Source of the DNA: Rhizobiaceae bacterium
Lineage (GTDB): Bacteria > Pseudomonadota > Alphaproteobacteria > Rhizobiales > Rhizobiaceae
Assembly (NCBI GenBank): GCA_017643025.1
Contig: JAEPOG010000004.1
Coordinates: 480,141-544,140, forward strand
Reading direction: 5' to 3'
Length of the DNA stretch: 64,000 bases
Part shown: in pieces, positions 5,995 to 22,268 of the stretch
How positions within the stretch are numbered: position 1 is the stretch's first letter
Layout: the number at the start of each line of letters is the position of its first letter
Position numbers and translations under genes: made by a program
Notes under the pieces: generated by a model
The model's database searches: none
What the model was told of the DNA's origin: nothing
What the model saw: the letters and a program-made list of their open reading frames with translations, nothing else

Positions 5995-6972
5995 ATGAAC
6001 GACGTCTTCATTTCATATGCGCGGGAAGACAGGCAGCGGGCTGCCGATCTAGCTTCGTTGCTGGAACGCAACGACATTTCAGTCTGGTGGGACTGGAACT
6101 TGATCGGTGGCAGCAAGTACCGAGATGTGATCGCGTCAAAGCTGAGAGAATCGGCCAAGGTGGTCGTGCTTTGGTCAGCGAGTTCCGTTGCCTCGTCATT
6201 CGTCATAGATGAGGCGCAGGAGGCGAAAGACGCCGGCAAGCTAATACCGATTGCGATCGACGGTGTTCGACCGCCCTTCGGGTTCCGTGATCTCCACACG
6301 ATAACACTTGACGAAAATGGAACCGAACTTCCGGCGTTGCTTGCCGCGATCAACGAAGAACCAATTCGGTCGCCAGCAACTTCAACTCCGCCTAGTCCTC
6401 GCGCCAAACGAAGTTATGGTCGAATCGCGGCGATCGGCCTTGGGGCTTTGGCTGCGTTGGCGTCGGTGGCCATCTTAGCGGTAGTTCTCTTGTCAAACCC
6501 ACGGTCGGCCGAGATCGAACCGGTCTTTTCGACTTTCATGACATCGGACCTCGGCCTAACGATCGTCTATCCCTCGAACATATTGAGCGTCGACACGACC
6601 GAAGAGAACCAGCGCCGCATACGGCTGAGAGATGAAAACGGCGATCCGGTCGTCCTGTTTTCCAGAACCAGTCTTCCGGACCACGCCGATGTCAAGATCG
6701 GGCGGTACAAGGAGGCGGCCGACCTGCGCGGAAGGCAGTTTGTGGTGACGTATGAGGCACCACAGCGGGAACGGAACTGGAGCAACTGGTATTCGCTGTC
6801 GGGCCTCTACCGCGGCTCGGTTTTCTACTTCAAACGCTGGTACACGCAGGACAGCGTGGTCTCGATCGAATTTGAGTATCCGAAGAGCTCGCAGCCGCTT
6901 TACGAAGAGCTGATCCCCAAGATGACCCGTGAGTTCGGATTCACCGGCATCACACCAATCGGATTGGAATGA
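5995..6972 (+). CDS. TIR-domain protein with one TM helix and a C-terminal extracytoplasmic domain
   Basis: DVFISYAREDR...VWWD...VVVLWSASSVASSFVIDEA matches TIR_2 with the catalytic-position Glu. A Pro/Ser linker, basic RAKRSYGR and a hydrophobic helix (aa ~144-167) precede a beta-rich C-terminal domain. Confidence 0.85.
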   Translation: MNDVFISYAREDRQRAADLASLLERNDISVWWDWNLIGGSKYRDVIASKLRESAKVVVLWSASSVASSFVIDEAQEAKDAGKLIPIAIDGVRPPFGFRDLHTITLDENGTELPALLAAINEEPIRSPATSTPPSPRAKRSYGRIAAIGLGALAALASVAILAVVLLSNPRSAEIEPVFSTFMTSDLGLTIVYPSNILSVDTTEENQRRIRLRDENGDPVVLFSRTSLPDHADVKIGRYKEAADLRGRQFVVTYEAPQRERNWSNWYSLSGLYRGSVFYFKRWYTQDSVVSIEFEYPKSSQPLYEELIPKMTREFGFTGITPIGLE

Positions 6973-7020: not shown

Positions 7021-7857
7021 TCATGAGAGCCAGCGCTTGCGGCGCTTGTAGTGCTTCACATTTCGGAAGGAGCGGCGGCCCTCGCCGCCGACGCCGAGGT
7101 AGAACTCCTTGACGTCCTCGTTCTGGCGCAGCGCCTTGCCCTCGCCGTCGAGAACCACGCGACCCGACTCCAGAATGTAGCCGTGCTGGGCGTAGCGAAG
7201 AGCAATGTTGGTGTTCTGCTCGGCGAGCAGGATGGACACGCCCTGGTCCTCGTTGAGTTGCTTCACGATCTCGAAGATTTCCTCGACCAGCTGCGGGGCA
7301 AGGCCCATCGACGGCTCGTCGAGCAGGATCATCTTCGGATTGGACATCAGCGCGCGGCCAATGGCCGTCATCTGCTGTTCGCCGCCGGATGTATAGCCGG
7401 CCTGGCTGTTGCGGCGTTCCTTGAGGCGCGGGAAATAGGAATAGACAAGCTCCAGATCGGCCTTGACCGCGGCACCGCCGTCGCGCCTCGTAAATGCGCC
7501 GGTGAGCAGGTTCTCTTCAACCGTGAGGTGGCCGAAGCAGTGCCGGCCCTCCATCACCTGGATGCAGCCGCGCCGCACCAGTTCGTTGGGCGACAGCGAT
7601 TCGACCCGCTCGCCCTCGAAGCGGATATTGCCCTTGGTCACTTCGCCGCGCTCGGCGTTGAGCAGGTTGGAGATCGCCTTGAGTGTGGTCGTCTTGCCGG
7701 CGCCGTTTGCGCCAAGCAACGCCACGATACCACCCCGTGGAACCGTGAGCGAAACGCCCTTCAGCACCAGGATGACGTGGTTGTAGATGACTTCGATATT
7801 GTTGACCTCGAGCAAGGCTTCCGCCTGGTCGGTCGCTATCGCGGCGTCGGCCATCAA
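7021..7857 (-). CDS. LivF-like ABC transporter ATP-binding protein
   Basis: Walker A GANGAGKT, signature-like TSGGEQQM, and LLDEPSMGL. Confidence 0.92.
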   Translation of the reverse strand: MMADAAIATDQAEALLEVNNIEVIYNHVILVLKGVSLTVPRGGIVALLGANGAGKTTTLKAISNLLNAERGEVTKGNIRFEGERVESLSPNELVRRGCIQVMEGRHCFGHLTVEENLLTGAFTRRDGGAAVKADLELVYSYFPRLKERRNSQAGYTSGGEQQMTAIGRALMSNPKMILLDEPSMGLAPQLVEEIFEIVKQLNEDQGVSILLAEQNTNIALRYAQHGYILESGRVVLDGEGKALRQNEDVKEFYLGVGGEGRRSFRNVKHYKRRKRWLS

Positions 7858-7924
7858 CTATTCTCCGCTGCTCGGGATAAGTTGGCTCCGGGCCGGTAAG
7901 CCCGGAGCCTTTGGTTAGGTCAGA

Positions 7925-9220
7925 TCAGCTGCCACAGGCAACTGGCTCGATACCGGCTTCCTGAGCATAGGCGGCCGAATCTTCCATGATGAGCGGATCG
8001 ACCACTTCGCGGTCGGCGCCCATGAAGTCGGTCACCAGCGACCAGGTCTTGCTCGATGCATCCCACTGCGAGATCGCGCCGAGGCCGGGCCCGCCGTGAT
8101 TGGAGCACGTCACGTTGATTTCCGGTCCGAAGTCCGGAATGCCGAGCTCGGCCATGCGCGCGTTGTCGAGCACCAGTGCTTCCATGCCATCGCGCATCAT
8201 CGCAGGCGTGATGTCGGTGGTGTCGTGGAGCTTCATCGCGGTGCGTGCGGCTTCTACCGCCAGCATCGCGGCATAGACGCCACGGTTGTAGAGCACCTCG
8301 CCGAGATGGCTGCCGTCACCCGCTGCCTTGCCGGCATCGATGACGTATTTCTGGATGTCGTCGAAGAGCGGGAAGTCCGAGCCAACGCCGTGGAACGCGA
8401 TGGCCTTGTAGCCATCGGCGCCGTCGCCTGCCGGCAGAACGTCGTTCTCAGACGCCGACCACCATACGCCGATGAAGTGGTCCATCGGGTAGCGAATGTT
8501 GGCCGCTTCCTGAATCGCCACCTGGTTCATGACGCCCCAGCCCCACATCAGCACATAGTTGGGCTGATCGCGGCGGATCTGCAGCCACGTTGCCTTCTGC
8601 TCCTGGCCCGGATGGTCGACCGGGTAGAGCGATAGCTCGTAGCCGTGCTTCGCAGCCAGTTCCTCAAGGGTGCGGATCGGCTCCTTGCCGTAGGCGGAGT
8701 TGTGGTAGACAAGCGCGATCTTCTTGCCATTGAGGTCGCCGCCCTCCTCGTCGAGGATGTGCTTGACGATGATCGACGCTGCATCCCAGTAGGTGCCCGG
8801 ATAGTTGAAGATCCACGGAAACACCTTGCCGTTGGCGGCCGAGGTGCGGCCATAACCCATCGAATGGACGGGGATGCCGTCAGCCGTCGCCTTGGGAATC
8901 AGCTGGTAGGTGATGCCCGTCGACAGCGGCTGGTAGAGCAGTGCGCCCTGGCCCTTGGTGGATTCGTAGCACTCCACGCCCTTCTCGGTGTTGTAACCCG
9001 TCTCGCACTCGAGAAGGGTAATCTTCTGGCCCTCGATGCCGCCGTCCCGCTCATTGATGAGCGTGAAGTAGTCTGCATAGCCGTCAGCGAACGGGATGCC
9101 GTTCGGTGCGTACGGACCCGTGCGGTAGGACAGCGACGGGAACACGAGATCGGCCAGGGCCGGGGCGGTGCTCATGACCACCGCGGCTGCCGCCGATGCT
9201 ACAAGTAGCTTCAGTCTCAT
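7925..9220 (-). CDS. Liv-type (periplasmic binding protein type 1) ABC substrate-binding protein
   Basis: Signal peptide MRLKLLVASAAAAVVMSTAPALA; YRTGPYAPNG and ECETGYNT motifs; RBS GGGAGG upstream of ATG 9220. Confidence 0.9.
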   Translation of the reverse strand: MRLKLLVASAAAAVVMSTAPALADLVFPSLSYRTGPYAPNGIPFADGYADYFTLINERDGGIEGQKITLLECETGYNTEKGVECYESTKGQGALLYQPLSTGITYQLIPKATADGIPVHSMGYGRTSAANGKVFPWIFNYPGTYWDAASIIVKHILDEEGGDLNGKKIALVYHNSAYGKEPIRTLEELAAKHGYELSLYPVDHPGQEQKATWLQIRRDQPNYVLMWGWGVMNQVAIQEAANIRYPMDHFIGVWWSASENDVLPAGDGADGYKAIAFHGVGSDFPLFDDIQKYVIDAGKAAGDGSHLGEVLYNRGVYAAMLAVEAARTAMKLHDTTDITPAMMRDGMEALVLDNARMAELGIPDFGPEINVTCSNHGGPGLGAISQWDASSKTWSLVTDFMGADREVVDPLIMEDSAAYAQEAGIEPVACGS

Positions 9221-9296
9221 TGACGTTCCTCCCATGTGAGACGTTTCCTCTTCAGTTTCCTCCCGGATTTCTCACCGGTTGGCTCCAGCTTAACTC

Positions 9297-10373
9297 CTAG
9301 TAGGGGAATGGCCAAAGCCTCAGTTTCTCCTTCGCCAGCCGCCACAGCTGCGCCAGCCCATGCGGTTCGACGATGAGAAAGAAGATGATCAGTCCGCCGA
9401 CGATCATGATCTGAAAATGCGCTGCTAGATCGGTCGGCCAGCCGAGCTGGTTCACCATCAATATCTTCAGCCCAACCGGGAAGAGAATGATGAACGCGGC
9501 GCCGAGGAACGAGCCCAGGATCGAGCCCAGCCCGCCGATGATGACGATGAACAGCGCGGTGAACGACTTGTCGATATTGAACGCTTCGGTGACCTCGGCC
9601 GCCCCGAGATAGATCGAGAAGAACATCGCTCCGCCCATACCGATATAGAAGGAGCTCACGGCAAAGGCGGAGAGCTTGGCGCGGAAGGGAGATACGCCCA
9701 TGATCTCGGCTGCGATATCCATATCGCGCATGGCCATCCAGCTGCGACCGACGCGCCCGCGCGTCAGGTTCTTCGCCACCCATGCGAAAACGAAAACCAG
9801 CGTGAGGCAGGTGAGATAGGTCGCCCAGGGCGCCGCATTGGGTCCGGTGACGGCAATGCCGAAGATCGTGCGCTCCGGTGCGCTGATCTGGCCAGAGGCC
9901 GAGTAGTTATAGAACCAGGCGAACTTGTTGAAGAACCAGACCAGGAAGAACTGCGCCGCCAGTGTCGCAACCGCCAGGTAGAAGCCCTTGATCCTGAGCG
10001 ACGGGAGGCCGAAAAGCACGCCGACCCCGGCCGTGACCAGTCCCGACAGCAGGATGCAGAAGATGATGTTGAGGTCCGGGAAGGCGGTCATGAACTTATA
10101 GCAGGCGAATGCGCCTACAGCCATGAAACCGCCTGTGCCGAGCGACACCTGCCCGCAATAGCCCGTGAGGATGTTCAGCCCAAGCGCGATCATTGCCCAG
10201 ACGAGCAGCGGCACCAGAAGCGACTTCTCCACATAGTCGGTGATGAAGAACGGAACGACAAGGAAGGCGACCGCCATCGCCGCCCAGAACAGGTATCGCT
10301 CCAGCTTGATCGGGAAGGTCTGGAGATCGGCGGCGTAGCTCGTTTTGAAGTCACCTGCTTCGCGGTACAGCAT
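9297..10373 (-). CDS. LivM-like ABC permease
   Basis: LNILTGYCGQVSLG and LRIKGFYLAVATLA motifs; multiple TM helices. Confidence 0.92.
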   Translation of the reverse strand: MLYREAGDFKTSYAADLQTFPIKLERYLFWAAMAVAFLVVPFFITDYVEKSLLVPLLVWAMIALGLNILTGYCGQVSLGTGGFMAVGAFACYKFMTAFPDLNIIFCILLSGLVTAGVGVLFGLPSLRIKGFYLAVATLAAQFFLVWFFNKFAWFYNYSASGQISAPERTIFGIAVTGPNAAPWATYLTCLTLVFVFAWVAKNLTRGRVGRSWMAMRDMDIAAEIMGVSPFRAKLSAFAVSSFYIGMGGAMFFSIYLGAAEVTEAFNIDKSFTALFIVIIGGLGSILGSFLGAAFIILFPVGLKILMVNQLGWPTDLAAHFQIMIVGGLIIFFLIVEPHGLAQLWRLAKEKLRLWPFPY

Positions 10374-10382
10374 GCTCGGACC

Positions 10383-11384
10383 CTAAACCCTCTCGATGAT
10401 GCGCTCGCCGAACAGCCCCTGCGGACGGAACAGCAGGAACACCAGCGCCACAACATAGGCGAACCAGTTTTCGATGGCGCCGCCCACAAGCGGCCCGATG
10501 TAGAGTTCGGCCAGCTTCTCGCCGACGCCGATGATCAGCCCGCCGACAATGGCGCCGGGGATAGACGTGAAGCCGCCGAGGATCAGCACCGGCAGCGCCT
10601 TGAGCGCGATCAGCGACAGCGAGAACTGCACACCCGACTTGGCGCCCCACATGATCCCCGCTACCAGCGCCACGAAGCCGGCGATCGACCACACGACCAC
10701 CCAGATAGTGCGCAGCGAGATGCCGACCGAAAGAGCGGCCTGGTGATCGTCGGCGACGGCGCGCAGCGCGCGCCCGAACTTGGTGTATTGTGAGAAGGCG
10801 ACGAGGGCGGACACGAGCACCAGAGCGACGATCGCGGCGACCACGTCCAGCTTGTCGATATACATGCCGAAATAGCCGGAATCTTCGGGCGCCCAGGTGC
10901 GCGTCACGTCCTCCCACCAGAACGACCCGCCGGACGGAATGCCGACGTCCATCGCCTTGATGTTGGCGCCCCACATCAGGTCGCCGAAACCTTCGAGGAA
11001 ATAGGCCAGCCCGATGGTCGCCATGAACAGGATTATCGGTTCCTGGTTGACCAGGTGCTTCAGCACCAGCCCCTCGAAGAGATAGGCGAAGGCCACCATC
11101 ACGCCGAGCGTGCCAACGATGGCGATGATCGCCGGTAGTTCCCAGCCGAAATGGTGGATCTGCGTGCCGAAGATCGCATTGATGAGGTGCGCAAACGGCA
11201 CCTGTCCGGTCTGCAGCCCGACCAGCGTCAGCGCGGCAAACAGCGCCATCACGCCCTGGGCGAAATTGAAGATGCCCGACGCCTTGAAGATCAATGCGAA
11301 GCCGAGGGCGACGAGCGAGTACATCACGCCGGCCATCAGGCCGTTGAGCACTGTTTCGATGAAATAGAGGAATTCGGGGTTCAT
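10383..11384 (-). CDS. LivH-like ABC permease
   Basis: YSLVALGFALIFKASGIFNFAQG and TKFGRALRAVADD motifs. Confidence 0.92.
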   Translation of the reverse strand: MNPEFLYFIETVLNGLMAGVMYSLVALGFALIFKASGIFNFAQGVMALFAALTLVGLQTGQVPFAHLINAIFGTQIHHFGWELPAIIAIVGTLGVMVAFAYLFEGLVLKHLVNQEPIILFMATIGLAYFLEGFGDLMWGANIKAMDVGIPSGGSFWWEDVTRTWAPEDSGYFGMYIDKLDVVAAIVALVLVSALVAFSQYTKFGRALRAVADDHQAALSVGISLRTIWVVVWSIAGFVALVAGIMWGAKSGVQFSLSLIALKALPVLILGGFTSIPGAIVGGLIIGVGEKLAELYIGPLVGGAIENWFAYVVALVFLLFRPQGLFGERIIERV

Positions 11385-11394
11385 CGCCGGCCCG

Positions 11395-11541
11395 CTAACC
11401 CAACAGGCCGGGGAACAGCCCCAGCACGCCTACGAGGATGAGGTAGATCGCCACCGCGTAGTTGAGGAAGCGCGGCGCGATCAGGATGATGATGCCTGCA
11501 ATCAGGGCGACGAGCGGCAATATCTCGAGCTGAAGCGTCAT
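11395..11541 (-). CDS. Small membrane protein, DUF3096-like (48 aa)
   Basis: MTLQLEILPLVALIAGIIILIAPRFLNYAVAIYLILVGVLGLFPGLLG. Its ATG overlaps the upstream stop (ATGA at 11538-11541). In the track it appears only as the tail of a longer shadow ORF. Confidence 0.75.
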   Translation of the reverse strand: MTLQLEILPLVALIAGIIILIAPRFLNYAVAIYLILVGVLGLFPGLLG

Positions 11542-12395
11542 GCGGTCTGCTGCTCCTCGTCCATCTCGCCATGCGGCACGCCCAGATAGGCGTCGATGAC
11601 GTCCTTGTTCTTGGCGATTTCGTCCGGCTTCCCGTCGCCGATCTTGCGTCCGTAATCGAGCACGACGATGCGGTCGGAAATATCCATCACCACGCCCATA
11701 TCGTGTTCGATCAGCGCTATGGTGGTGCCGAACTGGTTGTTCACGTCGAGGATGAAGCGGCTCATGTCCTCCTTTTCCTCGAGGTTCATGCCGGCCATCG
11801 GCTCGTCGAGCAGCAGCAGAGACGGCTCCGCCGCCAGCGCCCTGCCGAGCTCCACCCGCTTCTGCAGGCCGTAGGGCAGCCGCCCGACCGGCACCTTGCG
11901 GATATGCTCGATTTCGAGGAAATCGATGATCGCCTCTACGGCGCGCCGGTGTTCGATCTCCTCGCGCTCGGCCGGTCCCCACCACAGGCCCTGCCAGAAC
12001 AGGTTGCGCTTCTGCAGCGTGATCCTGCCGGTCATGATGTTGTCGAGCGTCGACATGCCGCGGAACAGCGCGATGTTCTGGAAGGTGCGCGAAATGCCCT
12101 GGCGCGCGGCATCCGTGGTGCGCATCGAATGGCGCGGCACGCCGCGATAGGTGATCGTGCCCTGCTGCGGCGTGTAGAAGCCGTTGATGACGTTGAGCAT
12201 CGACGTCTTGCCGGCGCCGTTCGGGCCTATGATGGCGCGTATCTCGCCCTTCAGAATGTCGAAGGATACGTCGGTGATCGCCTTCACGCCGCCGAAGGCA
12301 AGCGACACGTTCTTGACGTCGAGCAGCACATCGCCCTTGGCAATGCCGTCGTCGCGGGCGCCTGTGAATTCGCTGCGAGCGGGCTGCATGTTCAT
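11538..12395 (-). CDS. LivG-like ABC transporter ATP-binding protein
   Basis: GPNGAGKTS, RTFQNIALF, LPYGLQKRVELGRAL and LDEPMAGM motifs. Confidence 0.92.
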   Translation of the reverse strand: MNMQPARSEFTGARDDGIAKGDVLLDVKNVSLAFGGVKAITDVSFDILKGEIRAIIGPNGAGKTSMLNVINGFYTPQQGTITYRGVPRHSMRTTDAARQGISRTFQNIALFRGMSTLDNIMTGRITLQKRNLFWQGLWWGPAEREEIEHRRAVEAIIDFLEIEHIRKVPVGRLPYGLQKRVELGRALAAEPSLLLLDEPMAGMNLEEKEDMSRFILDVNNQFGTTIALIEHDMGVVMDISDRIVVLDYGRKIGDGKPDEIAKNKDVIDAYLGVPHGEMDEEQQTA

Positions 12396-14392
12396 TCTGC
12401 TGCCTCCCGCATCGGTTCGGCGGCAACGTCATACACCTTGGCGTCGGCAATTTTCACCGTCGCACGCAGCTTGCCCTTGCGGCCGTCCTCATAGGTCACT
12501 TCCGTTTCGACATATTTTTCGGTCGATCCGTCGTAGAGCGCGTCGATGAGCTCGCCGTAGCGATCGCCGATGAAGCCGCGCCGCACCTTCTGCGTGCGGG
12601 TGAGCTCGCCATCATCCGCGTCGAGCTCCTTATGGAGCACCAGGAAGCGCTTGATCTGCGCCCCCGCCATCATCGGCTCCTTGGAGAGCTTCAGGTTGGT
12701 ATCGTCGACATGCGCGGCGATCATCTCGTAGACGCGCGGATGGCTGGCGAGTTCCTGATAAGAGGCATAGGAGATGTTGTTGCGCTCGGCCCAGTTGCCG
12801 ACCGCCGTCAGGTCGATATTGATGAACACCGCGCAGAAGTCGCGATCGTGGCCGAAGGCGACGGCTTCCTTGATATTCGGGAAGAATTTCAGGACGTTCT
12901 CGACATATTTGGGCGAGAACAGCGCTCCCGTATTCAGCCTGCCGACGTCCTTCGCGCGGTCGATGATGCGCAACTGGCCGTCCTTGTCGAAGAAGCCCGC
13001 GTCGCCCGTCTTGACGTATCCGTCCTCGGTCATCGTCTCGGCCGTCTTGGCATCGTCGAGATAATAGCCGCTGAACATGCCGGGCGACTTGAACTGCACC
13101 TCGCCATCCTCGGAGATGCGCACATCGACATTGGGCGCCGCGGGCCCAACGGCGTCGGCGCGCACCGCGCCGTCCTCCTGGCAGGTGACGTAGAGAAACG
13201 CCTCGGTCTGACCGTAGAGCTGCTTGAGATTGATGCCGAGCGAGCGGAAGAAGGAAAACAGATCCTCGCCGATCGCTTCACCCGCTGTGTAGGCAACCCG
13301 AACCTTCGACAAACCAAGCGTGTTTTTCAGCGGGCCGTACACAAACAGCTCGCCCAGGGCATACGAAATTCGCCCCGACAGTGGGACGGGACGCCCCTCT
13401 AGTATGGCTTCGCCATATTTCCGAGCGACGCCGATGTACTTGTTATACAGCCACTTCTTGATGCGCCCCGCATCCTCCATGCGGATCGTCACCATCGTGA
13501 GCAGGCCCTCGAACACGCGCGGTGGGGCGAAGTAGAATGTCGGGCCGATCTCCCTGAGATCCTGCGTGACAGTCTCCGGGCCTTCCGGGCAGTTCACGCA
13601 GAAGCCAGAAACATAGCCCTGTGCGTAGTTGAGATAGTGGTCGCCCACCCAGGCAAGCGGCAGGTACGCGAGCACGCTGTCATGCTCGTTCAGGTGGTCG
13701 AACTTGGCCGTATCGACCGCCGCCTGCACGGCCGCCGCCGCGCCAATGACGACGCCCTTCGAGCGTCCCGTCGTGCCCGATGTGTAGAGCATGATGGAAA
13801 TGTCATCGCCGCTGGCGTCGCGGATGTTCTGTTCCCAGCGCGCTGCGGCGCTGCGGTCCGCCTCCATCTGCCGGCGGCCGGCTTCCTGTACGTTGGCGTA
13901 GGAGATAAGCCGCGAATGATCGTAGTCGCCGAGCCCTCGCTCCTCGTCATAGATAATCATGCCGAGATTGGGGATTTTCTCGGAGAAGGAGAGTATTTTG
14001 TCGACCTGCTCCTGGTCCTGCACGACCGCGAATTTCACGCCTGCGTGATCGAGCACATAGGCGAGTTCTTCGGCTACCGCATCGGCGTAGACAGGAACCG
14101 GAACCGCGCCGAGGCACTGAAGCGCCGCGATCGTCCAGTAGAGGCGTGGCCGGTTGGCGCCAACCACCGCGACGCGCTCGCCATGCGCAACGCCAAGCGT
14201 TTCCAGCCCGATGGAAAGCGCTCGAACCTCTTCGAGCTGTTCCTTCCAGCTCCAGCTCTGCCAGATGCCGAAATCCTTGTGGCGCATGGCCGGCAGGGCG
14301 CCGAAGCGCTCGGCATTGAGCAGCAGATATTTGGGAAACGTGTCGAGCTTCGGCTCGTGTCCAGCCAATGCCTGGTTCCTCCCAGCGGGCAT
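12392..14392 (-). CDS. Long-chain fatty acid-CoA ligase (AMP-binding, FadD-like)
   Basis: YTSGTTGRSKG, YGQTE and KTGDAG motifs. ATG 14392 is preferred over the track start at 14557. Confidence 0.9.
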   Translation of the reverse strand: MPAGRNQALAGHEPKLDTFPKYLLLNAERFGALPAMRHKDFGIWQSWSWKEQLEEVRALSIGLETLGVAHGERVAVVGANRPRLYWTIAALQCLGAVPVPVYADAVAEELAYVLDHAGVKFAVVQDQEQVDKILSFSEKIPNLGMIIYDEERGLGDYDHSRLISYANVQEAGRRQMEADRSAAARWEQNIRDASGDDISIMLYTSGTTGRSKGVVIGAAAAVQAAVDTAKFDHLNEHDSVLAYLPLAWVGDHYLNYAQGYVSGFCVNCPEGPETVTQDLREIGPTFYFAPPRVFEGLLTMVTIRMEDAGRIKKWLYNKYIGVARKYGEAILEGRPVPLSGRISYALGELFVYGPLKNTLGLSKVRVAYTAGEAIGEDLFSFFRSLGINLKQLYGQTEAFLYVTCQEDGAVRADAVGPAAPNVDVRISEDGEVQFKSPGMFSGYYLDDAKTAETMTEDGYVKTGDAGFFDKDGQLRIIDRAKDVGRLNTGALFSPKYVENVLKFFPNIKEAVAFGHDRDFCAVFINIDLTAVGNWAERNNISYASYQELASHPRVYEMIAAHVDDTNLKLSKEPMMAGAQIKRFLVLHKELDADDGELTRTQKVRRGFIGDRYGELIDALYDGSTEKYVETEVTYEDGRKGKLRATVKIADAKVYDVAAEPMREAAE

Positions 14393-14582
14393 GCGCCCGT
14401 AGTTCCCTAACCTCCGTATCGAGCGGAGATTTCTTGTTGTTTCGGCCAAGTTTCCACGAATCGGGGCGTTGTTCAACTCGCCGCTTGACAGACAAGAGGC
14501 CAGACTGTCTCTTAAATGGCCGACATTGTTTGCGCCGTTTGGCGCCGGACCCAGCACACCGCTTCCGCCAAATTGCGAAAAC

Positions 14583-15260
14583 TCAAGCCTCGTAGCGTGC
14601 GAGCTTCGTTCTGTCGAAGACGCGGATGCTGCCTCGTTCGAGCTTCAGCAGACCCTCCGCCTCCAGTTCCTGCAGCGCCCTGTTGACCAGCGGACGTGAC
14701 ACTCCGGCGAGCAGAGCGAGTTCCTCCTGCGTGATCTCGATCTCGCCCCGTGTTCCGGGATAGAGAACCGGGTTGAAAAGCCAGCCGAGATTGCGCGCCA
14801 CGCGTTCCTTGGGCCCCAGTATCCGGTCCTGCTCGATCGTGGCGATGAACTGCCCCATGCGCTCGTTGAGCTGAAGCACAAGGAACCGGTTGAACCCGGT
14901 GGAATTTTCGAACAGCCACATGAATACCGAGCGCGGCATCATCGCCAGCCGCGTGTCGCGGATGGCGACGAGATCGTATTGCCGCGGCTCGTTTTTGATC
15001 AGCGAACCCTCGCCGAACCAGCCGCCATCGCCAACGCCGGCAAACGTCATCGCCTTGCCGGTACGGGAGATCGTGCTGATTTTCACAAGGCCTGTAACGA
15101 CACCGGTCCAGTAGTCGAGCCGGTCCCCGCGATGGCAGATGTAGGCGCCCTTCTGAAAGTGGCGTTCGACAAGCCCGCGGCGGGCGCGTTCGATCTCGTC
15201 CTCGGCAAGTTCGGCGGCCCAGACGGCCGCGCGAACGGCGTCTGCTTCAGTAGCGCCCAT
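14583..15260 (-). CDS. Crp/Fnr family transcriptional regulator
   Basis: cNMP-binding fold (GGWFGEGSL) plus HTH ITQEELALLAGVSRPLVNRALQEL. Confidence 0.92.
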   Translation of the reverse strand: MGATEADAVRAAVWAAELAEDEIERARRGLVERHFQKGAYICHRGDRLDYWTGVVTGLVKISTISRTGKAMTFAGVGDGGWFGEGSLIKNEPRQYDLVAIRDTRLAMMPRSVFMWLFENSTGFNRFLVLQLNERMGQFIATIEQDRILGPKERVARNLGWLFNPVLYPGTRGEIEITQEELALLAGVSRPLVNRALQELEAEGLLKLERGSIRVFDRTKLARYEA

Positions 15261-15349
15261 GGATCCTCGCGGCTGCGGCCCAAGCGCCGCATCAGTCGCT
15301 TATGAACGTGCCGACTGGCGCTTGCAAGGCGACAGGCCAATCACCGGTG

Positions 15350-16141
15350 TCAGGCGGCAGCCTGCACATATTTGGCCGTGGGCAAGATGGTCAGCGGGGC
15401 AAGCTCGCCAGCCCCTTGCTTGCCGAACATCATGTGCTGTTCCCGCTTCGATGCGAAGAAGAAGGGGTACCGCTCGAAGGAGCGCTGGCGGATCGCGTTT
15501 ACGTCAGCACGGTAGAGTTCGACACGCGCGGTTACGCCCGGATAGGGCCTCGCCTCGCCCAGCCGCTCGGACATGTAGATGCGCCGGTAGAACGCCGCAT
15601 GGTCATCGCGGATGGTCGAAAGGCAATAGGGCGCTTCGAAATAGAAGCAGGCCATGCCGGCCAGCCTGAGCGTGATGTACGGAATCTGCGGATATATCTT
15701 CGACCACTCCGGATCGGCGGCGAAGCGGCTCGGATCGATGAAGGTCAGTCCCCGGTCGAGCATCGGATGGACGATGTCGCCGAACGCCTGTGTTGAAGGC
15801 CCGGCCCGGTGCTCGCTGTCGAGGTGATGGATACGCAGCGTGCTGACGAGCTGCTGGTCGACATAGACACCGAAGCGGTAGACGTTGTCCGTTTCGTCCA
15901 GAGGATCACGGATCGCGCCGTCGTGCATGTCGCCGACCACGCCATGGGCGCGATAGGCCTTGTAGCGCAAACGGTAGATGTCCTCGAGGTCTTCGCCCTT
16001 GTCGCAACGCCGGTACTCGGTCCGCTCAAGAACTTCAAAAACGCTCTTGGTGAAAGCAGAATACTCGCCGCGGGCCTGCCCTGAGGCCAAGTCTCGCGAT
16101 CCACTGCCCGCGCCGGGCAACGCCGTCAAACGCGCACTCAT
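15350..16141 (-). CDS. FeeM-like N-acyl amino acid synthase / GNAT-fold acyltransferase
   Basis: EDLEDIYRLRYKAY, D..DE..N...FGVY and FIDPSRFA motifs. Start is uncertain (16141 or 16222). Confidence 0.75.
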   Translation of the reverse strand: MSARLTALPGAGSGSRDLASGQARGEYSAFTKSVFEVLERTEYRRCDKGEDLEDIYRLRYKAYRAHGVVGDMHDGAIRDPLDETDNVYRFGVYVDQQLVSTLRIHHLDSEHRAGPSTQAFGDIVHPMLDRGLTFIDPSRFAADPEWSKIYPQIPYITLRLAGMACFYFEAPYCLSTIRDDHAAFYRRIYMSERLGEARPYPGVTARVELYRADVNAIRQRSFERYPFFFASKREQHMMFGKQGAGELAPLTILPTAKYVQAAA

Positions 16142-16237
16142 AGTCCCAATCCTCGTACTTCCGCCACAACCAGCGTAACTCAACCGGTTATTCAGTAAAG
16201 GCGAAAATACCTTCGATAGCATTTACCTAACGTTAAG

Positions 16238-16254
16238 GTTAACAATCGGTTAAC
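16238..16254 (-). promoter_or_regulatory. CtrA binding site (TTAA-N7-TTAAC)
   Basis: GTTAACCGATTGTTAAC is a perfect full site, with an extra TTAA at 16233-16236, in the AT-rich gap upstream of the FeeM-like gene. Confidence 0.75.
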
Positions 16255-16339
16255 GGCAATTAGGCGATCGCGTAATACGATCTCCCTACCATTCGAGTTT
16301 GCTAATGTAGAGAATTTGCGCGCGGCCGGGTTACTCTGC

Positions 16340-18652
16340 CTACAGCGGAATAACGTTCGAGACCTTGCGCAGTTCCTTGGCGAACGGCCAGGTCACGTTG
16401 GACATCGTCTCGATGCCCGAGGCGGTCAGGGCCGAACCGAACAGGAAGCCCTGCACGAGATCGGGCCGCACATTCGCCGAAAGAACCCGGATCTGGTCGA
16501 AGGTTTCGACGCCCTCCATCGTGACCTGCAGTCCGATGCCGCGCGACAGGCCGACAACACCCTTAAGCAGTTCCAGCGAGCGGGAATTGTGGGTGATGTC
16601 GAGCAGGAAGCTGCGATCGATCTTCACCTTGTCGAGCGGCAGCGTATGCAGGTAGCTCAGGCTCGAATAGCCTGTGCCGAAATCGTCGAGCGCGATCCGT
16701 ACGCCGAGCGACTTGAGCTCGGCCAGGAAATTGCCGGTCGATGACTTGTCGTCGAGCAGCGCCGTTTCGGTGACCTCGATTTCGAGCCGGTGCGCAGCAA
16801 GGCCCGACTTCGCAAGCGCTGCACGCACCTTGTCCACGACCTCGCGGCTATGGAAGTCCTTGGCCGACAGATTGACGGAAACGCCGATCTCCTCAGGCCA
16901 TTTCATGCATTCGCTGGTCGCCTGTTCGAGCACGATCGTGCTGATGTCGGAGATGATGCCCATCTCTTCGGCGAGCGGAATGAAAACAGCCGGAGACACT
17001 GGACCGAGCTCCGGATGATCCCAGCGGCAGAGCGCTTCGCAGCTTGCGATGCGCATGGTCTCCATCGAGACGATCGGCTGATAAACGACACGCAGGTCGC
17101 GCGCCTCCACCGCGCCGCGCAAATCCGACTTCATCATCTGCCGGTTGCGGAAGGCGGCATTCATCTTGGCTTCGAACAACCGCCAGCCGTTCTTGCCCGA
17201 TTCCTTTACTTTGTAGAGCGCCAGATCCGCCTTGACGATCATGTCGTCGACATCGGTGGCGCCGACCGTCGAGATCACCGCACCGGCGCTCATCTGGACC
17301 CGCAATGCATGACCGGCGACGTCGACATAGCCGCTCAGGTCGGCAAAGATGCGGTCGAGCAGCAGCGCAAGCTCTTCTTCCCCACCGATCGAATTGACGA
17401 AGATCATGAACTCGTCGCCGCCGAACCGGCTCACCGTCACGTCGTCGGAGGCGATAGCGGACAGCTTTTCGGCGACAGCGCTGATCAGCCCGTCGCCGAC
17501 GGGATGGCCGAGCGTGTCGTTGATGCTCTTGAAGTCGTCGAGGTCGAACACGGCCAGCGCACAGCTGCGTTCCATGTCGCCGCCCGCGACGAGTTCTGCC
17601 ACGAGTTCGTGGAAATAGGCCCGGTTGGGCAGGTTTGTGAGCGAATCGTAACGCGCCATGTGGCGAATGCGGGCTTCCGCTTCCACGCGCGCTGTCACCT
17701 CCTCGAATGTGATGACGCCAAGCTCGTCATTGCCCGGGCGCGCCGAGAACTCGAAATAGCGGCCATCGGTCAGGCGCAGCTGAAGCTTGCGGTTGCGGCT
17801 TTCCTTGAGCGCCCGCGTCAGCTGGCTCTCGGCATAGCGGCTGTCCTTGAGGCTGATGAGTCCGCCCGCCACCCCGCGCATGAGCACGGCGCGCAGGGAG
17901 CGCCCGAGCAGCTGTCGTGGATCGTCCTTGCGCAGCAGCAGCGTCGCTTCGGCGTTGGCGACCACGACCTTGCCGTCTGGACCCAGCATGACCAGGCCGT
18001 GCGACATGGTGTTGAGCGCGCGGTCGAACCGCTGGGCGAGCTTGTTGGCCTTCTTTTCCTCGAAGACCGCGGCAAACAGCACGTCGCGCACATTGCCGGC
18101 GAAGCGACGGATAGCAAAGAAGAACGGGATCGACAGGAAGCCCAGCAGGACATGGAAAACATCGCCGCGCATGAGGAAGCCGGCGGAAATGGGCATGGTC
18201 AGGAAGAAAATCAGCACCATCACCATGCGCGGCGAACCGTAGTTGCGCCCGGCGATGGATGTAGCGGTGGCCAACGTCACACAGACCGAGGCGATCTCGG
18301 CGAACTGGTCGTGCGCAGCATAAATGCCGGCAAAACAGAACGCGCCCAGCCCAATGGCGTGCGCTGTTCCCCATGCGATGTAGATGTTTTCAAGCCGCCG
18401 CGCGTCTTCGCGCGTCTCAGGCGGTGGCGCTGCATTGACGCGCCGCACGCTCGCAAGGCGCATGGCGCCGATACCCAGTATCGCCGCAGCAATGGCAAGA
18501 TAGATCGGATGGCCCGTCTTGATGAAGACGATGACGGCGAGGAATGACTGTGCCGTGATGCCGACCGCAAGCGTAACGCCGTCGCGAAAGAGCGTGCGAA
18601 CGAACGGTATATAGATGTCGAGCGGCAGCTCGGTGTTAGTTCTTGCCGGCAT
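16340..18652 (-). CDS. Membrane-anchored PAS-GGDEF-EAL diguanylate cyclase/phosphodiesterase
   Basis: About 6 N-terminal TM helices, a PAS-like segment, SRFGGDEF (no RxxD I-site), EALCRW, DDFGTGYSS, EGVE and QG. Confidence 0.93.
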   Translation of the reverse strand: MPARTNTELPLDIYIPFVRTLFRDGVTLAVGITAQSFLAVIVFIKTGHPIYLAIAAAILGIGAMRLASVRRVNAAPPPETREDARRLENIYIAWGTAHAIGLGAFCFAGIYAAHDQFAEIASVCVTLATATSIAGRNYGSPRMVMVLIFFLTMPISAGFLMRGDVFHVLLGFLSIPFFFAIRRFAGNVRDVLFAAVFEEKKANKLAQRFDRALNTMSHGLVMLGPDGKVVVANAEATLLLRKDDPRQLLGRSLRAVLMRGVAGGLISLKDSRYAESQLTRALKESRNRKLQLRLTDGRYFEFSARPGNDELGVITFEEVTARVEAEARIRHMARYDSLTNLPNRAYFHELVAELVAGGDMERSCALAVFDLDDFKSINDTLGHPVGDGLISAVAEKLSAIASDDVTVSRFGGDEFMIFVNSIGGEEELALLLDRIFADLSGYVDVAGHALRVQMSAGAVISTVGATDVDDMIVKADLALYKVKESGKNGWRLFEAKMNAAFRNRQMMKSDLRGAVEARDLRVVYQPIVSMETMRIASCEALCRWDHPELGPVSPAVFIPLAEEMGIISDISTIVLEQATSECMKWPEEIGVSVNLSAKDFHSREVVDKVRAALAKSGLAAHRLEIEVTETALLDDKSSTGNFLAELKSLGVRIALDDFGTGYSSLSYLHTLPLDKVKIDRSFLLDITHNSRSLELLKGVVGLSRGIGLQVTMEGVETFDQIRVLSANVRPDLVQGFLFGSALTASGIETMSNVTWPFAKELRKVSNVIPL

Positions 18653-18685
18653 TGAGCAGTTGTCCCGCCTCCGCCTGAAATATGG

Positions 18686-18700
18686 CAGTGCGGCATTAAG
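18686..18700 (-). promoter_or_regulatory. CtrA-like site (CTAA-N7-TTAA)
   Basis: Minus strand reads CTAAGCCTTTCTTAA, 34 nt upstream of the GGDEF-EAL ATG. Confidence 0.5.
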
Positions 18701-18791
18701 AAAGGCTTAGCCGGGTAGCCGATTGTGATTTCAGCAGCTTGTGCAGGATTTTCCTGTGTTGCCGAGGCCGCCCGAAAATACGGGTAGAGAC

Positions 18792-21700
18792 CTACTCCGC
18801 GGCCTCGAGTTCGGGCTTGGCTGTCGCACCGCGAAAACGGGCCAGGAGCCGCGCCCGTTCTTCAGCCGCCCGCGCGGCGCTGGCCTCCTTGATATGGCCA
18901 TAGCCACGAACCAGCTGTGGCACCGATGCCAATGCCGCGGCTGCGTCGATGCGTTCCACCGTCAGCTCACTGGCGATCATCGCAAGGTCGCTCTCATAGT
19001 CAGCCAGCAGCCGGCGCTCCATGCGCCGCTCGGCGGTACGGCCGAAAACGTCGAATACTGTCCCGCGCAGCCGTTTCATGCAGGCAAGCAGCCGGAATCC
19101 TGTCATCATCCATGGACCGAAGCTGGACTTGCGCGGCTGCCCGCTCGCGTCCTTGCGCCCAAGTATCGGCGGCGCGAGGTGAAATTCCAGTCTTTCGTAG
19201 CCAGCGAATTCCGAGGCTAGCTGCTTCTGGAACGAACCGTCTGTATAAAGCCGCGCTACTTCGTACTCGTCCTTGATCGCCATAAACTTGAAAAGGCCCC
19301 GCGCAGCGGCCTCGGCAACAGTGGTAGAGCCCGGAACTGCGTTGTCTTCGGCGGCGCGGATGGCGGCAACGCCGGCGCGATAGCGGCCGGCGTAGGCCTC
19401 GTCCTGATAGTCGGCGAGGAAGGCCGCGCGACGCTCGATGATCTCGTCGAGCGTTTGCGGTGCCTGCTTCTCCTCGGCTCCGGCTTTGTTGACCAGACCC
19501 CGCACATGCTCCGGGTCGTGCGCGGCGCGCCGACCCCAGCGGAAGGCGGCGATATTCATCGGAACGGCCTGACCGTTGAGCTCAATCGCTCGTTCCACCG
19601 CTTCCGGAGATACCGGCAGCCCGCCGCGCTGGCTGGCGATGCCGAGCATGAACATGTTGGCGCCGAGCGAGTTGCCGAACAGTGCCGAAGCGGTCGCCGT
19701 GGCGTCGAAGAATACCGCCTTGTCGTCGCCGACCGCACCGCGGATAGCCTTCTTGATGCGTTCCGAGGGCAGCGAAAAATCGGCGTTGCGGGCGAAATCG
19801 CCCGGCATCACTTCAGCGGTGTTGGCAACAAACAGCGTCTCACCCGAACGCGCAGCCGACAGCACCTTGCGCGAGCCGGAAACGACGAGATCGCACCCCA
19901 GTACCAGGTCGGCCTTGCCGGCCGAGACGCGGATGGCGCTGATGTCCGCAGGCGTGCGGGCCACACGCATATGGCTGTAGACGGCGCCACCCTTCTGGGC
20001 GAGGCCGGCCATGTCGATCAGGCCAGTGCCCCTGCCCTCGAGATGTGCGGCCATGCCGATGATGGCGCCGATGGTGACGACGCCGGTGCCGCCGATACCG
20101 TCAATGATCGCGGCCCAGCCATCATCGCCCAGCGCGAACACCTCAGGCTCCGGCACTCCCACAAGCGGGTCCGCCTCGCCGGCCGAGCCCTCGGCCTTCC
20201 TGCGCTTGGCTCCGTGCACGGTGACGAAGCTCGGGCAGAAGCCGTTGACGCACGAGAAATCCTTGTTGCAGCTCGACTGGTCAATGCGCCGCTTGCGGCC
20301 GAACTCTGTTTCGACGGGCTGCACCGACACGCAGTTGGACTTCACCCCGCAGTCGCCGCACCCTTCGCAAACAAGCTCGTTGATGATCACCCGCTTGTCG
20401 GGGTCGGGGAAGGTGCCGCGCTTGCGGCGGCGACGCTTCTCCGCGGCACAGGTCTGGTCATAGAGCAGAACGGAAACGCCCTTCTCCTCGCGCAGTTGGC
20501 GCTGCACGGCGTCCATGTCATCGCGGTGGTGGACGGTCGCGCCTTCGGGGAAGGTCAGGTGCCCTTTGTACTTCTCGGGCTCGTCGCTGACGACCGCGAT
20601 CCGCTTCACGCCCTCGGCGCGCACCTGATCGGCGATCATGTCGACCGTGAGACCGCCCTCGTGCGGTTGGCCGCCGGTCATCGCCACCGCATCGTTGTAG
20701 AGAATCTTGTAGGTCATGTTGGCGCCGGACGCGATCGCGAAGCGGATCGCCAGCGAGCCGGAGTGGTTGTAGGTGCCGTCGCCCAGGTTCTGGAAGAAGT
20801 GCTCGCGCTTCGAGAACGGCGCCTGGCCAACCCACTGCGCGCCTTCGCCGCCCATCGCCGTGAAGCCGATGGTCGAGCGGTCCATCCACATCGCCATGAA
20901 ATGGCAGCCGATGCCGGCGCCGGCGATCGAGCCCTCGGGCACCTTGGTGGACGAATTGTGCGGGCACCCCGAACAGAAATAGGGCTGCCGCGCCCCTACA
21001 TCTTTCGTGTCGGCAAGCATCGCCTGATACTGCCGCAGCCGGCTGACCCGGTCCGCCAGATCGCCGCTCGGCCCGACGATCTTCAGGATACGCTCGCCCA
21101 GCGCTATCGCGATGTCATTGGTGTCGAGCGCGCCCTTGGCCGGGAAAAGCCAGTCGTCGCGCTCGTCTTTCTTGCCGACGATGACAGGCTGGTTGGCGGT
21201 GCCGTAGAGATGCTCGCGCATCTGCACTTCGAGCAGCGACCGTTTTTCTTCCACCACCACCACGAGTTCCAGCCCTTTGGCGAACTCGCTGATATGCTGG
21301 TAGTCGAGCGGCCAAGGTGCGGCCACCTTGAACAGGCGGACCCCGAGGAGCTTGGCTCGCTCCTCGTCGATGCCGAGATCATCCAGTGCCTGGCGGGTGT
21401 CGAGATACGACTTGCCGACCGTTATGATGCCGATCCGCGCATTGCTGCCGCCCGAATAGATGATGCGGTTCAAGTCGTTGGCGCGGATGAATGCCGCAGC
21501 CGCTGCGCGCTTGTATTCGTGCAGCCGCGCTTCCTGCGCAAGCTGGTCGACCTCGTGGCGGATATTGAGCCCGCCGGGCGGCATGTCGAATTCCGGCACG
21601 ACGATCTTTACGCGATCGAGCGAGGCATCGACCGAGCCGGTCGATTCCACGTTGTCCTTGACGCATTTGATTGCCGCCCAGGTGCCGGCGAAACGCGACA

Positions 21701-22268
21701 GCGCATAACCGTAGAGGCCGTAGTCGATCAGTTCCTGTACGCCGGCCGGGTTGAGGATCGGGACCATCGTATCGACGAACAGGAACTCGGTCGCATGGGC
21801 GACCGTGGACGACTCGGCCATGTGGTCGTCGCCCATCAGCGCCAGCACGCCGCCATTCTTCGATGAACCTGCAAGATTGGCGTGGCGGAACACGTCGCCC
21901 GAACGGTCGACGCCGGGTCCCTTGCCGTACCAGACCGAGAAAACGCCGTCGTGCTTACCTTCGCCTAGCAATTCCGTCTGCTGCGAACCCCAGCATGCCG
22001 TCGCGGCAAGCTCCTCGTTGAGCCCCGGCTGAAACACGATGTCGGATTGCTGAAGCTGCTTGCGCGCCTTCCACAGCTGCAAATCGAGGCCGCCGAGCGG
22101 CGAACCGCGATAGCCGGAGACAAAACCTGCAGTCTTTAGCCCGGCAAGCCTGTCGCGTTCGCGCTGCATCAGCAGCATACGCACAATCGCCTGCGCGCCG
22201 GAGACGAAAATCCGATTCTTCGACAGATCGAATTTGTCGTCCAGTGAAACGTCGTGAAGGGTCATCAC
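18792..22268 (-). CDS. Indolepyruvate ferredoxin oxidoreductase family protein (fused alpha/beta)
   Basis: SGYRGSPLGG, TPP-binding GDGTYNHSG, ferredoxin CEGCGDC...CP cysteines and GLAQKGGAV. Confidence 0.92.
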   Translation of the reverse strand: MMTLHDVSLDDKFDLSKNRIFVSGAQAIVRMLLMQRERDRLAGLKTAGFVSGYRGSPLGGLDLQLWKARKQLQQSDIVFQPGLNEELAATACWGSQQTELLGEGKHDGVFSVWYGKGPGVDRSGDVFRHANLAGSSKNGGVLALMGDDHMAESSTVAHATEFLFVDTMVPILNPAGVQELIDYGLYGYALSRFAGTWAAIKCVKDNVESTGSVDASLDRVKIVVPEFDMPPGGLNIRHEVDQLAQEARLHEYKRAAAAAFIRANDLNRIIYSGGSNARIGIITVGKSYLDTRQALDDLGIDEERAKLLGVRLFKVAAPWPLDYQHISEFAKGLELVVVVEEKRSLLEVQMREHLYGTANQPVIVGKKDERDDWLFPAKGALDTNDIAIALGERILKIVGPSGDLADRVSRLRQYQAMLADTKDVGARQPYFCSGCPHNSSTKVPEGSIAGAGIGCHFMAMWMDRSTIGFTAMGGEGAQWVGQAPFSKREHFFQNLGDGTYNHSGSLAIRFAIASGANMTYKILYNDAVAMTGGQPHEGGLTVDMIADQVRAEGVKRIAVVSDEPEKYKGHLTFPEGATVHHRDDMDAVQRQLREEKGVSVLLYDQTCAAEKRRRRKRGTFPDPDKRVIINELVCEGCGDCGVKSNCVSVQPVETEFGRKRRIDQSSCNKDFSCVNGFCPSFVTVHGAKRRKAEGSAGEADPLVGVPEPEVFALGDDGWAAIIDGIGGTGVVTIGAIIGMAAHLEGRGTGLIDMAGLAQKGGAVYSHMRVARTPADISAIRVSAGKADLVLGCDLVVSGSRKVLSAARSGETLFVANTAEVMPGDFARNADFSLPSERIKKAIRGAVGDDKAVFFDATATASALFGNSLGANMFMLGIASQRGGLPVSPEAVERAIELNGQAVPMNIAAFRWGRRAAHDPEHVRGLVNKAGAEEKQAPQTLDEIIERRAAFLADYQDEAYAGRYRAGVAAIRAAEDNAVPGSTTVAEAAARGLFKFMAIKDEYEVARLYTDGSFQKQLASEFAGYERLEFHLAPPILGRKDASGQPRKSSFGPWMMTGFRLLACMKRLRGTVFDVFGRTAERRMERRLLADYESDLAMIASELTVERIDAAAALASVPQLVRGYGHIKEASAARAAEERARLLARFRGATAKPELEAAE

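Follow-up and report, generated by a model that had tools for sequence, protein, structure and literature searches.

A putative two-gene signalling module in Rhizobiales: a FeeM-like N-acyltransferase and the membrane sensor of an adjacent GGDEF-EAL protein diversify together

The described system closest in its logic to the locus reported here is the RpfF-RpfR pair of Burkholderia cenocepacia and Cronobacter, which acts with the Burkholderia diffusible signal factor (BDSF) and in which the gene of a fatty-acid signal synthase neighbours that of a PAS-GGDEF-EAL receptor. This c-di-GMP-turnover enzyme binds its synthase as well as the signal, which it reads directly, so that receptor and synthase are coupled in function and physically (PMC6361424). 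The present locus was analysed in a stretch of 64,000 nucleotides, called the window below (contig JAEPOG010000004.1, positions 480,141 to 544,140), from a Rhizobiaceae bacterium that groups with Mesorhizobium and Aquamicrobium in the Rhizobiales. It consists of a gene for a FeeM-like N-acyltransferase of 263 amino acids with a predicted LuxI/GNAT fold, a putative signal synthase (15350..16141, minus strand), and of a gene directly upstream that encodes a protein of 770 amino acids with six predicted transmembrane (TM) helices followed by PAS, GGDEF and EAL domains (16340..18652, minus strand), a putative bifunctional cyclase/phosphodiesterase of cyclic di-GMP (c-di-GMP). The locus has in common with RpfF-RpfR that the gene of a lipid-signal synthase, here a putative one, adjoins a PAS-GGDEF-EAL gene and that the two are conserved as a pair. 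The components are different. The synthase is GNAT/LuxI-fold and FeeM-like while RpfF is a crotonase, a six-helix membrane domain stands at the N-terminus of the putative receptor where RpfR has a soluble FI domain, and the variable, presumably ligand-specific part is this membrane domain rather than the PAS domain. Moreover, CtrA boxes and a diversification into types are seen here. The main result described below is that the membrane domain and the FeeM-like protein have diversified together across species.

FeeM-type enzymes, or N-acyl amino acid synthases (NAS), yield free N-acyl amino acids in the cases characterised, and links to second messengers have precedents among them. Nas343 and Nas354 are fused to a PilZ domain, which binds c-di-GMP (PMC4897644), and NasP is activated by cyclic AMP (cAMP) according to work cited in the same article. 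The window protein is like these enzymes in its Pfam family, PF21926, and in its predicted fold. It differs from them in having no fused cyclic-nucleotide-binding (cNMP-binding) or PilZ domain, in a conserved C-terminal tail of 40 residues ending in -AA, and in its partner, which is a membrane GGDEF-EAL gene and not a biosynthetic cluster or an exosortase system. In the agr and comQXPA systems, the signal-making enzyme and the membrane part of the sensor diversify as matched types, while the cytoplasmic output and the flanks are conserved. The specificity polymorphism of comQXP has been documented (PMC4408185). The locus resembles agr of Staphylococcus and comQXPA of Bacillus in that synthase and receptor sensor part co-diversify with a conserved output domain and conserved flanks, and it differs from them in that the proposed signal is a lipid amide and not a peptide, the output is c-di-GMP turnover and not a histidine kinase, and the diversity is seen between species. 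With LuxI/LuxR it shares a related synthase fold (LasI, EsaI and BjaI, with a profile match to EsaI); it differs from that system in having no match to PF00765 and no LuxR partner, the receptor candidate being a membrane diguanylate cyclase/phosphodiesterase. No literature was found on a GGDEF-EAL/FeeM pair, on FeeM together with GGDEF, or on N-acyl amino acids together with CtrA.

Approximately 19 kb around the FeeM-like gene were compared in 20 relatives, 11 from the same genus and nine from outside it, with one genome per species. The GGDEF-EAL gene was directly upstream of the FeeM-like gene in 20 of 20, including members of other genera and of another family (Pelagibacterium). In 80 named loci, the order IOR, GGDEF-EAL, FeeM-like was nearly universal, IOR being the gene of the indolepyruvate-ferredoxin-oxidoreductase family that flanks the GGDEF-EAL gene (18792-22268, minus strand), and the pair was adjacent in all but one of the loci having enough flanking sequence. 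Presence and absence agreed as well. The synthase occurs in 22 of 41 related genomes, all 22 of which carry the six-helix sensor beside it; among the 19 genomes that have no synthase, 17 gave no sensor-domain match at all and two gave weak paralogues only. In eight distant genomes the neighbours of the pair differ (LacI, GNAT, P450, M20 peptidase, aldo-keto reductase, acyl-CoA dehydrogenase, TPR and alanine dehydrogenase), and a search for a third conserved partner around the pair in these genomes found none, Crp-family genes recurring in two loci only.

Within the pair, conservation is distributed unevenly. Genomes of the same clade are 80-89% identical to the window in IOR, 82-87% in the GGDEF and EAL domains and 72-87% in the Crp-family regulator encoded downstream of the pair; in the six-helix domain they reach only 38-41%, and in the FeeM-like protein 45-52%. 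These last two segments are closer to those of the more distant genera Aquamicrobium, Aminobacter and Mesorhizobium, with identities of 58-75% and 57-76%, respectively. Sliding DNA identity shows them as two separate foreign patches, at 18650-18050 (TM) and 16140-15400 (FeeM), in surroundings that are otherwise species-like, and a recombination breakpoint lies between FeeM and Crp. The first patch corresponds to the hypervariable six-helix domain (residues 10-195; 18068..18625, minus strand), which co-diversifies with the FeeM-like gene. The conserved GGDEF and EAL catalytic domains (residues 333-739; 16436..17656, minus strand) track the species tree, and Crp belongs to the conserved backbone and not to the variable module. 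Across 83 genomes, the pairwise distances of the TM domain and of FeeM were correlated with r of 0.92. When the flanking IOR was taken into account, the partial r with FeeM was 0.87-0.91 for the TM domain, 0.61 for PAS and 0.34-0.38 for GGDEF and EAL.

Maximum-likelihood trees gave the same picture. The IOR and catalytic-region trees place the window inside a clade together with five close relatives, and the TM-domain and FeeM trees both place it with the genome G004, Aquamicrobium sp. LC103 and A. aerolatum; the latter two trees also recover the same sub-clades elsewhere, for instance locus L027 with L029. In approximately unbiased (AU) tests, which were post hoc, the species-like placement was rejected for TM (p 3e-5) and FeeM (2e-62), and the type-like placement was rejected for the catalytic region (8e-44) and IOR (0.016). 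Over the 83 genomes, the TM and FeeM trees have 66-70% of their well-supported splits in common and conflict in 11-15%. When either is compared with the catalytic region, 39-49% of the splits conflict, though this region lies between the two on the DNA; the catalytic region and IOR conflict in 10-15% of supported splits. At a coarse cut, FeeM and TM type clusters correspond one to one (four FeeM, four TM and four combined clusters). On a species-proxy tree, the numbers of type changes are 27 for FeeM, 25 for TM and 30 for the combination at a fine cut, and 4, 4 and 4 at the coarse cut; changes of the two nearly always coincide. Split comparison and change counts were used for these assessments, as adjusted Rand indices between the clusterings are dominated by one large Mesorhizobium cluster and uninformative. 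Three matched types are present within the closest clade of the window alone, each genome there being a different species. That the TM sensor and the FeeM-like synthase are functionally coupled is, on these data, highly probable.

The GGDEF-EAL protein matched the Pfam families EAL (E 1.6e-64), GGDEF (4.9e-36) and PAS_7 (2.7e-09). A prediction made earlier from the DNA letters of the window, referred to here as the original prediction, had reported intact GGDEF and EAL motifs, no I-site and a sensor of about six TM helices, all of which was borne out; it did not mention the PAS domain (residues 213-326). The window protein has intact motifs for both GGDEF (RFGGDEF) and EAL (EAL, N, EIEVTE, DDFGTGYSS, KIDRSF, EGVE and QG), 85 orthologues show little or no variation in these catalytic motifs, and a search for an RxxD I-site in the protein found none. 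With intact GG(D/E)EF and EAL active-site motifs, the protein is a putative bifunctional c-di-GMP enzyme.

The six predicted TM helices are connected by periplasmic loops of about 3-6 residues. A sensor of this predicted shape would be unable to bind a hydrophilic periplasmic ligand. The shape fits an intramembrane lipid ligand, or a contact with an intramembrane or cytoplasmic protein. In the AlphaFold2 model of the sensor, for which the predicted local distance difference test (pLDDT) is 86.6, TM6 continues as a single helix (residues 165-214) into the PAS domain. The six-helix domain matched no Pfam family even at E <= 10 and no fold in the PDB, all Foldseek matches having fallen on the PAS part. 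The types differ throughout the TM helices, most strongly in TM1 and TM2 (24-30% identity). On the cytoplasmic side, the loop GRNYGSPRM is almost invariant, and the loop of residues 69-90 and the N-terminus are variable and differ between types.

The longest open reading frame (ORF) of the FeeM-like gene covers 15350-16222. The ATG at 16141 was taken as the likely start because relatives conserve the GAGGA ribosome-binding site that precedes it. The protein matched PF21926 over the full profile (1-158) with an E-value of 4.5e-47 and 160.2 bits, against a cut-off of 27. Its AlphaFold2 model (pLDDT 87.9) had FeeM itself (2G0B; E 1.3e-11, TMt 0.82) as top Foldseek match, at an identity of about 16%, followed by GNAT acetyltransferases such as glyphosate N-acetyltransferase and by the N-acyl-homoserine-lactone (AHL) synthases LasI, EsaI, BjaI and TofI. 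Searching PDB sequences with this one protein gave nothing relevant, and FeeM was recovered by fold comparison only; the family profile reaches EsaI by sequence at E 0.005. By these models, the protein carries a GNAT/LuxI-like fold that is closest to FeeM. No NCBIfam model matched at E <= 0.001, including that of the exosortase-associated acyltransferase, and PF00765 (Autoind_synth) gave no match to the protein in the Pfam scan or in a genome-wide search.

Conserved residues of the FeeM-like family include R59, D79/D82, R103 and the block IDPSRFA, whose D136 is present in 90% or more of 22 orthologues. The DPSRFA part resembles the ELSRFA block of LuxI, which holds the catalytic Glu of that enzyme. 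By this motif analogy, D136 would sit where the catalytic Glu is expected. The conserved C-terminal tail of 40 residues (...PLTILPTAKYVQAAA) ends in a conserved -AA. It has the form ...PLTILPTAKYxxxAA (15350-15400 in the window). Of 120 homologues of the Phyllobacteriaceae type, 115 have the -AA end, while the residues before it vary; the -AA end is missing in the Rhizobium/Ensifer type. More speculatively, the -AA terminus may be a C-terminal degron of the ClpXP type, by which the synthase could come under proteolytic cell-cycle control. Full-length strong FeeM matches of this type are rare across the class. The family was also found in Rhizobium tropici, Ensifer-like species, Pararhizobium, Neorhizobium, Shinella and Hoeflea, where its members are always annotated as hypothetical or as "FeeM domain-containing". 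In one genome, that of Pararhizobium mangrovi, a gene for an 817-amino-acid peptidase of the M20 family stands directly upstream of the pair (L039:15507-17960). This family includes N-acyl-amino-acid amidohydrolases, and the enzyme might degrade the product of the synthase.

Both genes of the pair are preceded by CtrA-type boxes. The FeeM promoter has two in tandem (16222..16253, minus strand), a perfect TTAA-N7-TTAA box, TTAACCGATTGTTAAC, at 16239-16253 and a box with one mismatch, TTAACGTTAGGTAAA, at 16222-16236. The former is the sole perfect box of the window, where 0.02 would be expected. The 4.0-Mb genome contains 17 perfect boxes against 0.23 expected from its TTAA count, and only the one in the FeeM promoter has a second box within 40 nt. 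The spacer between the GGDEF-EAL and FeeM-like genes measures 130-300 nt everywhere, and 91 of 93 distinct orthologous spacers contain a perfect box or one with a single mismatch. Perfect boxes occur at 1.65 per kb in the spacers versus 0.0034 per kb in the remaining 1.8 Mb of the compared loci; one-mismatch boxes have a background density of 0.06 per kb. About 77 of the 93 orthologous promoters of the GGDEF-EAL gene contain a [C/A]TAA-N7-TTAA box 56-60 nt before the start. In the window this is the imperfect box cTAA-N7-TTAA, CTAAGCCTTTCTTAA, at 18696..18710 (minus strand), 58 nt upstream of the start codon. The original prediction of CtrA-type sites before both genes was right for the FeeM-like gene, whose box is perfect, and right that a box precedes the GGDEF-EAL gene; it had put this second box at 18686-18700, a segment that holds only a TTAA half-site. 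The conserved boxes support CtrA-type control of both genes, to which CtrA itself would bind. Since both genes carry such boxes, the module is probably expressed in a window of the cell cycle.

Fourteen of the 17 perfect boxes of the genome lie outside long ORFs. Pfam-identified neighbours of perfect boxes include DnaB, an Omp25-like beta-barrel porin, DUF1465 (two boxes) and a WecG glycosyltransferase; further neighbours are hybrid-kinase genes and, by inspection only, FtsK-like and PBP1A-like genes. The 17 boxes form a compact candidate CtrA regulon, part of which is as expected for the CtrA regulon of rhizobia.

A working model can be proposed in which the functional unit would be the two-gene module. 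The FeeM/LuxI-fold acyltransferase would use an activated fatty acyl donor to form a hydrophobic acyl-amide, most probably an N-acyl amino acid. The fully membrane-embedded six-helix sensor of its neighbour in the inner membrane would read this product, or the synthase itself, in a type-specific manner, and the signal would pass via the continuous TM6-PAS helix to the GGDEF and EAL domains, shifting the balance between synthesis and breakdown of c-di-GMP. Synthase and sensor would constitute matched, exchangeable specificity types with a conserved catalytic output, and CtrA would restrict expression of the module to part of the cell cycle. We infer the chemical product, its binding by the sensor, the direction of the c-di-GMP change and the binding of CtrA. 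At the core of the original prediction, synthase and membrane GGDEF-EAL protein act as a single signalling unit in which the sensor reads what the synthase puts out, and this idea now receives indirect support from co-inheritance, co-diversification and the conserved boxes. Regulation of the synthase by c-di-GMP or cAMP would have precedents in the PilZ fusions of Nas enzymes and in NasP. The leading reading is that the sensor has the acyl-amide made by the synthase as its cognate ligand within the membrane, and from sequence comparison we give it an even chance. The complete scheme, an undescribed form of cell-cell or self-signalling in which a type-specific lipid amide is read by the six-helix GGDEF-EAL sensor in types that do not cross-react, under CtrA gating and possibly with proteolysis through the -AA end, is put forward tentatively, its chances being somewhat below even.

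Several points weigh against this model. Co-diversification is a sign of coupling and not of a diffusible ligand, as a protein-protein interface or acylation of the sensor gives the same pattern. Matched diversity was seen between species, and true pherotypes within a species would be a further step. One locus, L079, is a clear exception to the pairing, with FeeM but no sensor within 10 kb. Conversely, weakly similar paralogues of the TM domain are found in four genomes that have no FeeM-like gene within about 6 kb of them (L123-L126, in genomes G012, G021, G038 and G020; 23-27% identity in the TM part), and the outputs attached to these sensor paralogues are GGDEF only, a protein of 541 amino acids, and a second full PAS-GGDEF-EAL. 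Across 22 orthologues, the FeeM-like core contains no invariant Glu; the catalytic residue of FeeM-type enzymes is a Glu (Glu95 of FeeM, Glu103 of Nas354; PMC4897644). The groups compared in the AU tests were named after the trees had been seen, the likelihood differences being 80-450 units. Finally, the window genome is in 21 contigs with a completeness of 91%, and an assembly chimera at the locus is possible for the window; the matched-type pattern recurs in other assemblies, single-contig ones included.

The co-diversification would equally be expected if the two proteins were coupled directly, with no diffusible signal, the FeeM-like protein docking on the cytoplasmic face of the six-helix domain or acylating it, in the manner of an acyltransferase that has a protein as its cognate substrate. 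The type-dependence of the cytoplasmic loop 69-90 and of the N-terminus agrees with such a contact, and there is a parallel in RpfR, which binds and inhibits its synthase RpfF, with its FI domain as the counterpart (PMC6361424). However, divergence peaks inside TM1 and TM2 and not only in cytoplasmic parts, the sole strongly conserved element is itself a cytoplasmic loop, and the FeeM-family enzymes studied so far make free products (PMC4897644). Direct coupling is considered unlikely, although it is the strongest competitor of the model above. Less probable still is neutral linkage, by which TM and FeeM would be two fast-evolving segments that keep an older shared history while recombination homogenises the conserved IOR, catalytic domains and Crp but fails to cross the divergent stretches, with no selection on the match between the two. 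It is exactly the conserved segments that track the species tree, and bacterial recombination does swap patches bounded by high identity; yet TM-only or FeeM-only patches, which need one crossover in the flanking gene and another in the catalytic region, should then arise as easily as patches of the catalytic region, and mismatched combinations were essentially unseen. Joint type changes (30) are near the single counts (27 and 25) and not near their sum, the coarse types correspond one to one, and strict co-occurrence and adjacency across families argue for function. We also give little credence to the idea that the product is a structural membrane aminolipid, made at a set point of the cell cycle, with the GGDEF-EAL protein sensing the general state of the membrane. 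Many bacteria do have N-acyl amino acids and related aminolipids among the constituents of their membranes (PMC11631085), and CtrA regulons include envelope genes, perfect boxes being present here beside the Omp25-like porin and the WecG transferase. A bulk lipid, however, gives no reason for the type-specific co-diversification of an enzyme with sensor helices.

The remaining alternative is a larger circuit of nine genes built on the original prediction, in which an importer and a ligase encoded downstream would recycle the acyl moiety and the Crp-family regulator, through cAMP, would control the synthase. The genes concerned encode the Crp-family protein (cNMP-binding and helix-turn-helix domains by Pfam; 14583..15260), a long-chain-type acyl-CoA ligase with an AMP-binding domain (12392..14557; its nearest NCBIfam model is FadD11, under the cut-off of that model) and a Liv/HAAT-type ABC importer (7021..12395, by Pfam and NCBIfam), all on the minus strand. 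As had been stated, GGDEF-EAL, FeeM-like, Crp, ligase and ABC genes are co-oriented, and the gap from the FeeM-like stop to the Crp start, given as about 90 nt, measures 89 nt. Co-orientation and tight spacing favour the circuit, as does the cAMP activation of NasP cited in the article on Nas enzymes. Crp-family genes are also found divergently upstream of the pair in two distant loci (L037:15374-16057 and L040:2334-3092); their arrangement differs from that of the downstream Crp of the window, and they hint weakly at a recurrent Crp link. The Crp-ligase-ABC block follows the pair in 10 of 12 same-genus genomes (the window and nine of the 11 compared; in one more, G002, it is visible only up to the contig end), and the whole block including Crp is present in about 24 of the 80 named loci, in several genera, with a few further loci having ligase and ABC genes but no Crp and a few cut by a contig end. 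But most Mesorhizobium loci, and all nine compared loci outside the genus, lack the block next to the pair. The original prediction had called for DGC-FeeM and FeeM-Crp synteny to be scored separately, and the scores indeed diverge, with the former in 20 of 20 relatives and the Crp block in only a subset of the family. Moreover, LivG, LivH, LivM and the binding protein form an evolutionary module of their own (r 0.90-0.99 among themselves), the partial r of the transport genes with FeeM is about 0.3-0.4 versus approximately 0.9 for the TM domain, FeeM types and binding-protein types are found in all four combinations, and the breakpoint noted above separates FeeM from Crp. With this patchy synteny, own history and free combination of types, membership of Crp, ligase and importer in the system is unsupported, and the nine-gene circuit is improbable. 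The original interpretation is right for the pair, an undescribed variant, and wrong or at least unsupported for the block. Binding proteins of the Liv class in Rhodopseudomonas bind fatty, dicarboxylic and aromatic acids, and the ligase and Liv-type transporter fit the known alphaproteobacterial uptake systems for hydrophobic carboxylates (PMC3223731). The block, which holds two ATPases, two BPD_transp_2 permeases, a Peripla_BP_6 binding protein and the AMP-binding ligase, all co-oriented, would be an operon of its own that takes up hydrophobic carboxylates and activates them with CoA, and in part of the family it simply lies next to the pair.

The circuit had also been described as LuxI-independent. 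This is correct in that the FeeM-like gene is separate from LuxI, and it needs the qualification that the same genome holds two canonical LuxR-LuxI pairs (C13:46527-47738 and C21:47421-48713) and further LuxR-type solos. If the two-gene model is true, the module would provide a second, lipid-amide channel beside AHL quorum sensing in a large group of soil, marine and plant-associated Rhizobiales (Mesorhizobium, Aminobacter, Aquamicrobium, Rhizobium, Ensifer-like genera, Pararhizobium and Pelagibacterium), one that feeds directly into c-di-GMP, and with it into the switch between motile and attached life, and that is tied to the cell cycle. It would give a physiological role to FeeM-type N-acyl amino acid synthases, which are so far known mostly from metagenomic clones, and would establish a new membrane sensor domain for which there is a candidate ligand. 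The matched types offer an experimental handle through type swaps and raise the question whether Gram-negative bacteria use lipids to tell kin or species apart.

Within the importer operon, the genes on the minus strand are livG (11538-12395), livH (10383-11384), livM (9297-10373), the ABC binding-protein gene (7925-9235) and livF (7021-7857), with a small DUF3096 ORF, also on the minus strand, between livG and livH (about 11395-11520). Within the genus, LivG, LivH, LivM and the binding protein exist in two deeply divergent forms (42% versus 93% identity for the binding protein; 7925-12395 in the window, compared in L025-L034). LivF and the ligase stay at 75-95%. The ABC genes are a second mosaic, which is independent of that of FeeM and TM. 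An Rfam scan of 14400-19000 for riboswitches or other RNAs in the spacers gave chance-level matches only, and a scan for terminator and promoter consensus sequences found nothing convincing between the genes. Just past the ABC operon, a gene for a TIR-domain protein (5995-6972, plus strand) lies in a stretch of lower GC content (0.567).

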